Source: Escherichia coli (GTDB lineage: Bacteria > Pseudomonadota > Gammaproteobacteria > Enterobacterales > Enterobacteriaceae). Taken from it: a stretch of DNA of 64,000 bases. The translations under genes were made by a program, and so were the position numbers. The stretch is from the NCBI RefSeq assembly GCF_036507355.1, contig NZ_AP027877.1; one strand, 5' to 3'. Every line of letters starts with the position of its first letter. Within the stretch, counting starts at the first letter, position 1. Shown in pieces: positions 30,749 to 31,270 of the stretch. The notes under the pieces are model-generated. The model searched no databases and was not told the origin of the DNA. It saw only the letters and a program-made list of their open reading frames with translations.

Positions 30749-31270
30749 AATCTATTCGCCTTATATATGTCTGGAGGTTTTGAGGATGATGATTAATTAT
30801 TATCGCCAGAACGAAATGTGCACGAAAAATTGCTATAAGAATTGTGTCACTTTTATCATTGTGATATGATCACTTCGTCATTAATCTTATGATCGTTTAA
30901 ATAGTACCGCCAAATCACGCAACGAACTTTGCTGGATTCAGTTTATGCTGCTGTAAATCCGCTCGCAGTAAACCTTTCAGACGCTCCGTGATGTTATCAG
31001 TTGTTCTTTAAGCGTTTTGCTGGTGTACTCACTACAAACGAATTGCGAATCGAATCAATGTGAAACGGAAAGGTACAATCTCCCTTTTTTTAGTGTTAAC
31101 ATCGCTCAACCGGGTGGAAGGTGAGAGGTTAATGTCTTTCATTTGTGTACCTGATTGCGAACCAATTTAGCATTTGTTGGCTAGATGGTTTCGCAATGAA
31201 CTGTTAATAAACAAATTTTTCTTTGTATGTGATCTTTCGTGTGGGTCACCACTGCAAATAAGGATATAAA

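Follow-up and report, generated by a model that had tools for sequence, protein, structure and literature searches.

The thrS leader of an Escherichia coli chromosome as the known tRNA-Thr anticodon-mimic operator, with two forms of its upstream half among Enterobacterales

The window, the whole stretch of 64,000 nt analysed here, contains at positions 31109-31270 (+) what is almost certainly the 162-nt leader of the thrS mRNA, and at 31154-31273 the two-hairpin, anticodon-mimic translational operator bound by ThrRS, with the full mechanism set out below. The operator is already known and is a classic case of translational autoregulation via tRNA mimicry. The identity with K-12, the fold, the covariation, the invariant GU, the match to the tRNA loops and the position relative to the transcription start site (TSS), the Shine-Dalgarno (SD) sequence and the AUG were established in this analysis; the binding of ThrRS, the symmetry of the dimer, steric hindrance of the 30S subunit and competition with tRNA are derived from the literature. 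[quoted passage not shown]

The whole window is E. coli chromosome, and the segment 30750-31400 was matched in 5425 of 5426 complete E. coli genomes. The thrS coding sequence, at once the repressor and the regulated gene, occupies 31271-33199 (+) as a 642-aa open reading frame opening at the ATG at 31271; it is annotated as thrS in the matching E. coli genomes, where infC-rpmI-rplT-pheMST lie downstream. The encoded ThrRS gave a full-length match to PDB 1QF6, with the E-value reported as 0, and also matched a truncated ThrRS sequence common to several PDB entries including 1KOG. The last of these we take to contain operator domain 2 (Torres-Larios 2002). Comparison of 31040-31290, a segment that spans the thrS start, with K-12 MG1655 (NC_000913) showed 251 of 251 bases to be identical, and the window therefore carries the sequence used to define the thrS operator; a comparison with the known operator, which had been put forward as a check, thus revealed no divergence. 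The leader was present at a coverage of at least 80% in 5424 of the 5426 complete E. coli genomes.

Further features were observed in the same window. Upstream of thrS, an intact 632-aa open reading frame at 28850-30748 (-) carries in the closest genome the annotation EspL1, a type III effector; the espL1/arpB locus is intact in the window strain and is the pseudogene arpB in K-12. Rfam matches at gathering score elsewhere in the window were the RprA sRNA at 61922-62029 (-), the Phe leader (pheM) at 34565-34689 (+), STnc540 at 38530-38688 (+) and ES036/CssrF at 13282-13324 (-).

The extent of the leader was set by a published transcription start. A genome-wide study reports a thrS TSS with a 162-nt 5'UTR, defined by a 51-mer ending in GTTAACATCGCTCAA (PMC3415461, supplementary file 2). 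This 51-mer maps to 31059-31109, which places the TSS, position -162, at 31109 (+); the leader is accordingly 162 nt long, and 31080-31108 is promoter. The first-pass annotation had given a leader of roughly 190 bp at 31080-31270, a span that carries 32 extra bases at its 5' side and has been shortened here. The 162-base string quoted with it is indeed present in the window, at 31112-31273 and not beginning at 31080. The thrS promoter probably comprises a TGn and the -10 hexamer TAACAT (31097-31102), together 31094-31102 (+), with the hexamer ending 7 nt before the published TSS. A scan for consensus promoters and terminators did not pick up the thrS promoter, omitting the hexamer because the -35 element is weak.

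Folding of the leader with ViennaRNA gave three hairpins, at 31111-31153, 31154-31197 and 31222-31258, and recovered the anticodon-like loops that secondary-structure prediction on the 5'UTR was proposed to look for. The domains are given here with boundaries that we take to be the published ones, placed on the window from reviews. The predicted 5' hairpin (31111-31153, +; -160 to -118) is outside the operator proper; it has a minimum free energy (MFE) of -15.3 kcal/mol (z = -2.7) and includes the first copy, GUGUACC at 31145-31151, of a heptamer considered below. Operator domain 4, delimited by the fold and by covariation, is a long irregular hairpin at 31154-31197 (+; -117 to -74) with an energy of -18.4 kcal/mol (z = -5.0), and none of 200 shuffles was as good. 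In its upper stem, 31166-31171 are paired with 31180-31185 around the loop AUUUGUUG (31172-31179), which contains the anticodon-like UGU at 31175-31177 (U-96 G-95 U-94); the loop is of 8 nt in the ViennaRNA fold, compared with 7 nt in a canonical anticodon loop. The lower stem of the hairpin is the inverted repeat gcgaacc/ggtttcgc. Domain 3 follows at 31198-31221 (+; -73 to -50) as an A/U-rich linker, mostly unpaired in the fold, with its role taken from the literature; the U-rich tract at -56 to -47, in the 3' part of the domain, supplies the upstream portion of a split ribosome-binding site (RBS), a role likewise known from the literature.

Operator domain 2 is a two-tier hairpin at 31222-31258 (+; -49 to -13), identified by the fold, covariation, comparison with the tRNA and a covariance-model match. 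Its energy is -10.6 kcal/mol (z = -2.2), a value that 7 of 200 shuffles equalled or bettered, so that by energy alone it is modestly better than shuffled sequence. The lower stem pairs 31222-31227 with 31253-31258 and the upper stem 31229-31235 with 31243-31249; the 7-nt loop UUCGUGU (31236-31242) includes the anticodon-like CGU at 31238-31240 (C-33 G-32 U-31), and the internal loop CAC lies at 31250-31252. Domain 1, assigned from the sequence and from PMC3858243, spans 31259-31273 (+) and consists of the SD UAAGGA at 31259-31264 (-12 to -7) and the AUG at 31271-31273. The layout of a split RBS is present, the SD/AUG and the U-rich single strand flanking domain 2, with 30S binding known from the literature. 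The two tRNA-like stem-loops anticipated from the sequence are thus recovered by folding as domain 2, with the loop UUCGUGU, and domain 4, with the loop shown above.

Both loops were compared with the anticodon loops of the K-12 tRNAs. The loop of tRNA-Thr(CGU), UUCGUAA, and the domain-2 loop UUCGUGU are identical at positions 32-36, and at five of the seven positions in all. The tRNA-Thr(UGU) loop reads CUUGUAA, against UUUGU inside the domain-4 loop.

For comparative analysis, thrS loci from 80 other Enterobacterales species were fetched and their leaders aligned, giving 81 with the window. Domain 2 was 96.1% paired across the 81 leaders, with 8 of its 13 pairs changed on both sides, compared with 32-46% in slid controls. 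The G and the U of the domain-2 loop were found in 81 of 81 leaders, and the preceding base was C in 77 and U in 4, both of which give Thr anticodons. The CAC internal loop together with the following UG (-21 to -17) was invariant in the 81 leaders, as was the GGA of the SD. These data are independent evolutionary support for the identity rule derived from genetics, in that the equivalents of G35 and U36 are invariant and position 34 varies freely. In L017, L020, L021 and L028 (Lelliottia, Enterobacter quasihormaechei and a MAG) the domain-2 triplet reads UGU in place of CGU, and the basal pair of the domain-2 upper stem has changed from G-C to A-U, a compensated change. A covariance model trained on 78 non-Escherichia domain-2/SD sequences was run over the 64 kb window and returned one strong match, at 31215-31276, with 87.1 bits and an E-value of about 4e-22; the next-best match in the window reached 13 bits (E 0.24). 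Shuffle counts from the pair-counting tool are no probabilities; the slid controls and this independent model agree with them in direction.

Upstream of about -50, the Enterobacterales thrS leaders are of two structurally different forms, A and B, the E. coli form being type A. The sorting into 41 type-A and 40 type-B leaders was made by regular expressions and then, for ten ambiguous leaders, by eye, with the calls for L069, L071, L075, L076 and L078 uncertain. Among the 41 type-A leaders the upper helix of domain 4 was 89% paired, and all six of its pairs were changed on both sides. The lower helix was 65% paired in an imperfect MAFFT alignment, above slid controls, the low figure being due in part to misaligned indels; individually, 37 of the 41 leaders fold into the long domain-4 hairpin. 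The loop G was kept in 37 of 41 and the U in 41 of 41, and NGU was found in 37 of 41 as UGU, CGU, GGU or AGU, all of them Thr anticodons. In two insect symbionts the domain-4 triplet is a different one, CAU (a Met anticodon) in Ca. Pantoea persica (L067) and UAU in Ca. Erwinia dacicola (L075); both keep CGU in domain 2.

Two inverted repeats had been pointed out by the first-pass annotation, and they fared differently. The gcgaacc/ggtttcgc part stands as the lower stem of domain 4. The ccaa/ttgg part is complementary and was rejected as a pairing: it was 70.1% paired in 41 relatives, compared with 70.3% in shuffles, showed no covariation, and was equalled or bettered by 336 of 500 shuffles.

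In many type-A leaders the heptamer UGUGUACC occurs twice with a period of 12 nt. In the window the copies are GUGUACC (31145-31151) and GCGAACC (31157-31163), of which the second makes up the 5' strand of the lower stem in domain 4. Exact repeats are seen in Salmonella, Atlantibacter, Sodalis and some Yersinia, and in other Yersinia the sequence CUGUGUACACAG forms a perfect palindrome. One possibility is that the repeat reflects alternative pairing to the 3' strand of domain 4; another is that it is a site acting at the DNA level.

The same part of the leader contains a 12-codon upstream open reading frame (uORF) at 31132-31170 (+), encoding MSFICVPDCEPI before its stop codon, and ribosome traffic on it through the 5' arm of domain 4 might be supposed to tune thrS. 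The uORF starts with an ATG, has GAGG three bases before it and extends into the 5' half of domain 4; Salmonella enterica arizonae has a comparable reading frame, MIICVPDCVPI followed by a stop. An in-frame ATG was however found in only about 9 of the 41 type-A leaders (E. coli, Salmonella and a few others), and many lack the stop, a patchiness that rules out the uORF as a conserved feature. What looks like conservation of the peptide (CVP...CVP) is accounted for by the repeated nucleotide motif UGUGUACC, and MSFICVPDCEPI contains no Thr codons. Regulation through translation of this uORF is therefore very unlikely.

An intramolecular switch was considered as well, in which the U-tract at 31215-31220 would sequester the SD (31260-31265) by pairing, with no protein competing. 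The ViennaRNA MFE structure of 31154-31280 does contain a 6-bp A-U/G-U helix between the two. Across the 81 leaders, however, this helix, the sole one predicted to pair the SD, was 46.7% paired, compared with 47.6% in shuffles, and showed no covariation, and the SD has been described as unpaired (PMC3858243). The helix was dropped for want of comparative support, a decision that fits the published unpaired SD and steric repression, and a switch of this kind is considered extremely improbable.

Searches of Rfam 15 returned no family for the thrS leader, either at the gathering threshold over the whole window or at E-values up to 10 over 30750-31400; a type-B leader (L024, 1280-1520) was likewise without a family, and the RefSeq feature tables hold no feature for the thrS operator. 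The operator is thus invisible to standard annotation, and the alignments and the highly specific 78-species model show that a family could be built. The same searches bear on the idea that the leader is a transcription attenuator or a T-box riboswitch, in which uncharged tRNA-Thr would be sensed and read-through controlled. The thrS gene of Bacillus subtilis is under T-box control (PMC3997798), and the E. coli leader is long and structured. Against this, neither the T-box (RF00230) nor any other Rfam leader family matched at E-values up to 10, and 30700-31400 contains no terminator-like site, with no G+C-rich hairpin and U-run before the AUG; the idea is hardly credible. That the hairpins are functionless chance structures of an A/T-rich intergenic region, as the domain-2 z-score of only -2.2 against shuffles might suggest, can be dismissed, given that both covary, that the loop GU is invariant in 81 species, that the covariance model matched at an E-value of about 4e-22, and that the sequence is identical to the experimentally defined operator.

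The preferred reading is thus the translational operator, for which the mechanism proposed is as follows. Domain 2 (CGU) and domain 4 (UGU) each expose a Thr anticodon-like triplet in the apical loop, and a ThrRS homodimer would hold both hairpins via its tRNA-Thr anticodon-binding domains, one hairpin per subunit. Since domain 2 lies between the halves of the split RBS, with the SD/AUG on one side and the U-rich end of domain 3 on the other, bound ThrRS is expected to keep out the 30S subunit sterically, by means of its N-terminal domain. An excess of free ThrRS should then lead to less translation of thrS. Uncharged tRNA-Thr and the leader would be rivals for ThrRS, which would close the feedback loop.

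This mechanism follows the literature on the K-12 operator. The operator is described as having four domains, with ThrRS on domains II and IV and the ribosome on domain I and the 3' part of domain III (PMC11088916). ThrRS binds hairpins II and IV because of their likeness to the anticodon arm of tRNA-Thr (PMC11088916; PMC9976931), domain 2 being the equivalent of that arm (PMC9976931), and when the anticodon-like triplet is swapped to that of Met, control passes to MetRS (PMC11088916). The RBS has two parts separated by the hairpin that ThrRS binds, and its SD is UAAGGA (PMC3858243). Bound ThrRS collides with the 30S platform through its N-terminal part, and tRNA-Thr and the leader compete for the enzyme (PMC7373986). 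Binding and repression by ThrRS, and relief by tRNA-Thr, are known for exactly the sequence found in the window (PMC3858243, PMC11088916, PMC7373986). A 2026 evolution study of borrelidin-selected E. coli reported a G-to-A change at NC_000913.3 position 1,802,589 (PMC13148393). By arithmetic, this position corresponds to C-19 of the thrS mRNA, window position 31252, a base of the CAC internal loop that is invariant in 81 of 81 leaders.

The two forms of the upstream half differ in structure. Type A has a long hairpin with a YGU loop, as in the window at 31109-31221, and was found in Escherichia, Salmonella, Lelliottia, Yersinia, Pantoea, Erwinia, Dickeya and other genera. Type B was found in Citrobacter, Klebsiella, Enterobacter, Pectobacterium, Serratia, Rahnella, Hafnia, Proteus and others, and is a closed three-way junction that contains a short 6-bp hairpin with the RGU loop AGAGUGAA. 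This hairpin was 92.5% paired, with 5 of its 6 pairs changed on both sides, and RNAalifold independently predicts the same hairpin; the loop G was kept in 39 of 40 leaders and the U in 40 of 40. A long outer helix, in which about -165 is paired with about -65, encloses both the AGAGUGAA hairpin and a second hairpin, with at least 6 enclosing pairs in 34 of 40 MFE structures and in many different sequences. GTAC repeats in type-B leaders were considered as extra anticodon-like loops and rejected, as on folding they mostly turn out to be the opposite strands of a hairpin stem; loops reading UUUGUAC or UUCGUAC are found at the repeat site in a few type-B species only, for example L009 and L022.

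Compared with E. coli, type-B leaders have the same domains 1 and 2 and an upstream hairpin with an NGU loop at nearly equal distance, whereas the three-way junction with its 6-bp hairpin replaces the long domain-4 hairpin. The loop G's of the upstream hairpin and of domain 2 lie a median 64 nt apart in type A and 67 nt apart in type B. The break between the forms falls near -50, at the foot of domain 2, and a ydiY-like (DUF481) upstream gene flanks both types. The thrS coding DNA of Atlantibacter subterranea (type A) is 96.6% identical to that of A. hermannii (type B), and the leaders of the two species are identical from about -52 on and unrelated upstream. Since these sister species differ in type, type does not follow relatedness. 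The leader L003 (NZ_JAATUR010000048.1, 947-1146), from a contig labelled E. coli SCPM-O-B-8794, precedes an Escherichia-like thrS with 99% protein identity and is Citrobacter-like type B upstream of -50; apart from the shared segment from -50 to -1, this leader was found in none of the 5426 complete E. coli genomes.

On these sequence comparisons, a tentative proposal is that the upstream half of the operator could be a replaceable module, existing in two forms and presenting a GU some 64-67 nt upstream of the domain-2 GU; we hold this to be possible and somewhat doubtful. The type-B loop AGAGUGAA may be bound by the second ThrRS subunit. If it is, the dimer would need only a properly spaced upstream NGU loop, and the operator would have been rebuilt or exchanged repeatedly. 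The comparison suggests that the second ThrRS-binding hairpin is evolutionarily plastic. No account of the A/B dimorphism was found in the literature searched, which consisted mainly of reviews.

The closest known system is the K-12 thrS operator, the subject of the work of Springer, Grunberg-Manago, Ehresmann, Romby and colleagues and, for the complex of ThrRS with operator domain 2, of Torres-Larios 2002. The window has the same sequence over 251 bases, the same TSS, the same four domains, the CGU at -33 to -31 and the SD UAAGGA; there is no difference in the operator, and the window strain differs only upstream, at espL1/arpB. The T-box leaders of Bacillus subtilis thrS and thrZ likewise control thrS and read the tRNA-Thr system via a 5'-leader RNA. 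The T-box RNA, however, binds uncharged tRNA and acts by transcription antitermination, whereas the E. coli leader imitates the tRNA, binds the protein and acts on translation initiation. An anticodon-like element in the yeast AspRS mRNA shares autogenous translational repression by mimicry of the substrate RNA (PMC7373986), and operators of ribosomal proteins that mimic rRNA, such as that of L20 upstream of rpmI-rplT in the same gene cluster, follow the same principle (PMC7373986). The yeast element and the ribosomal-protein operators involve other proteins, folds and organisms, and have no sequence relationship to the thrS operator.
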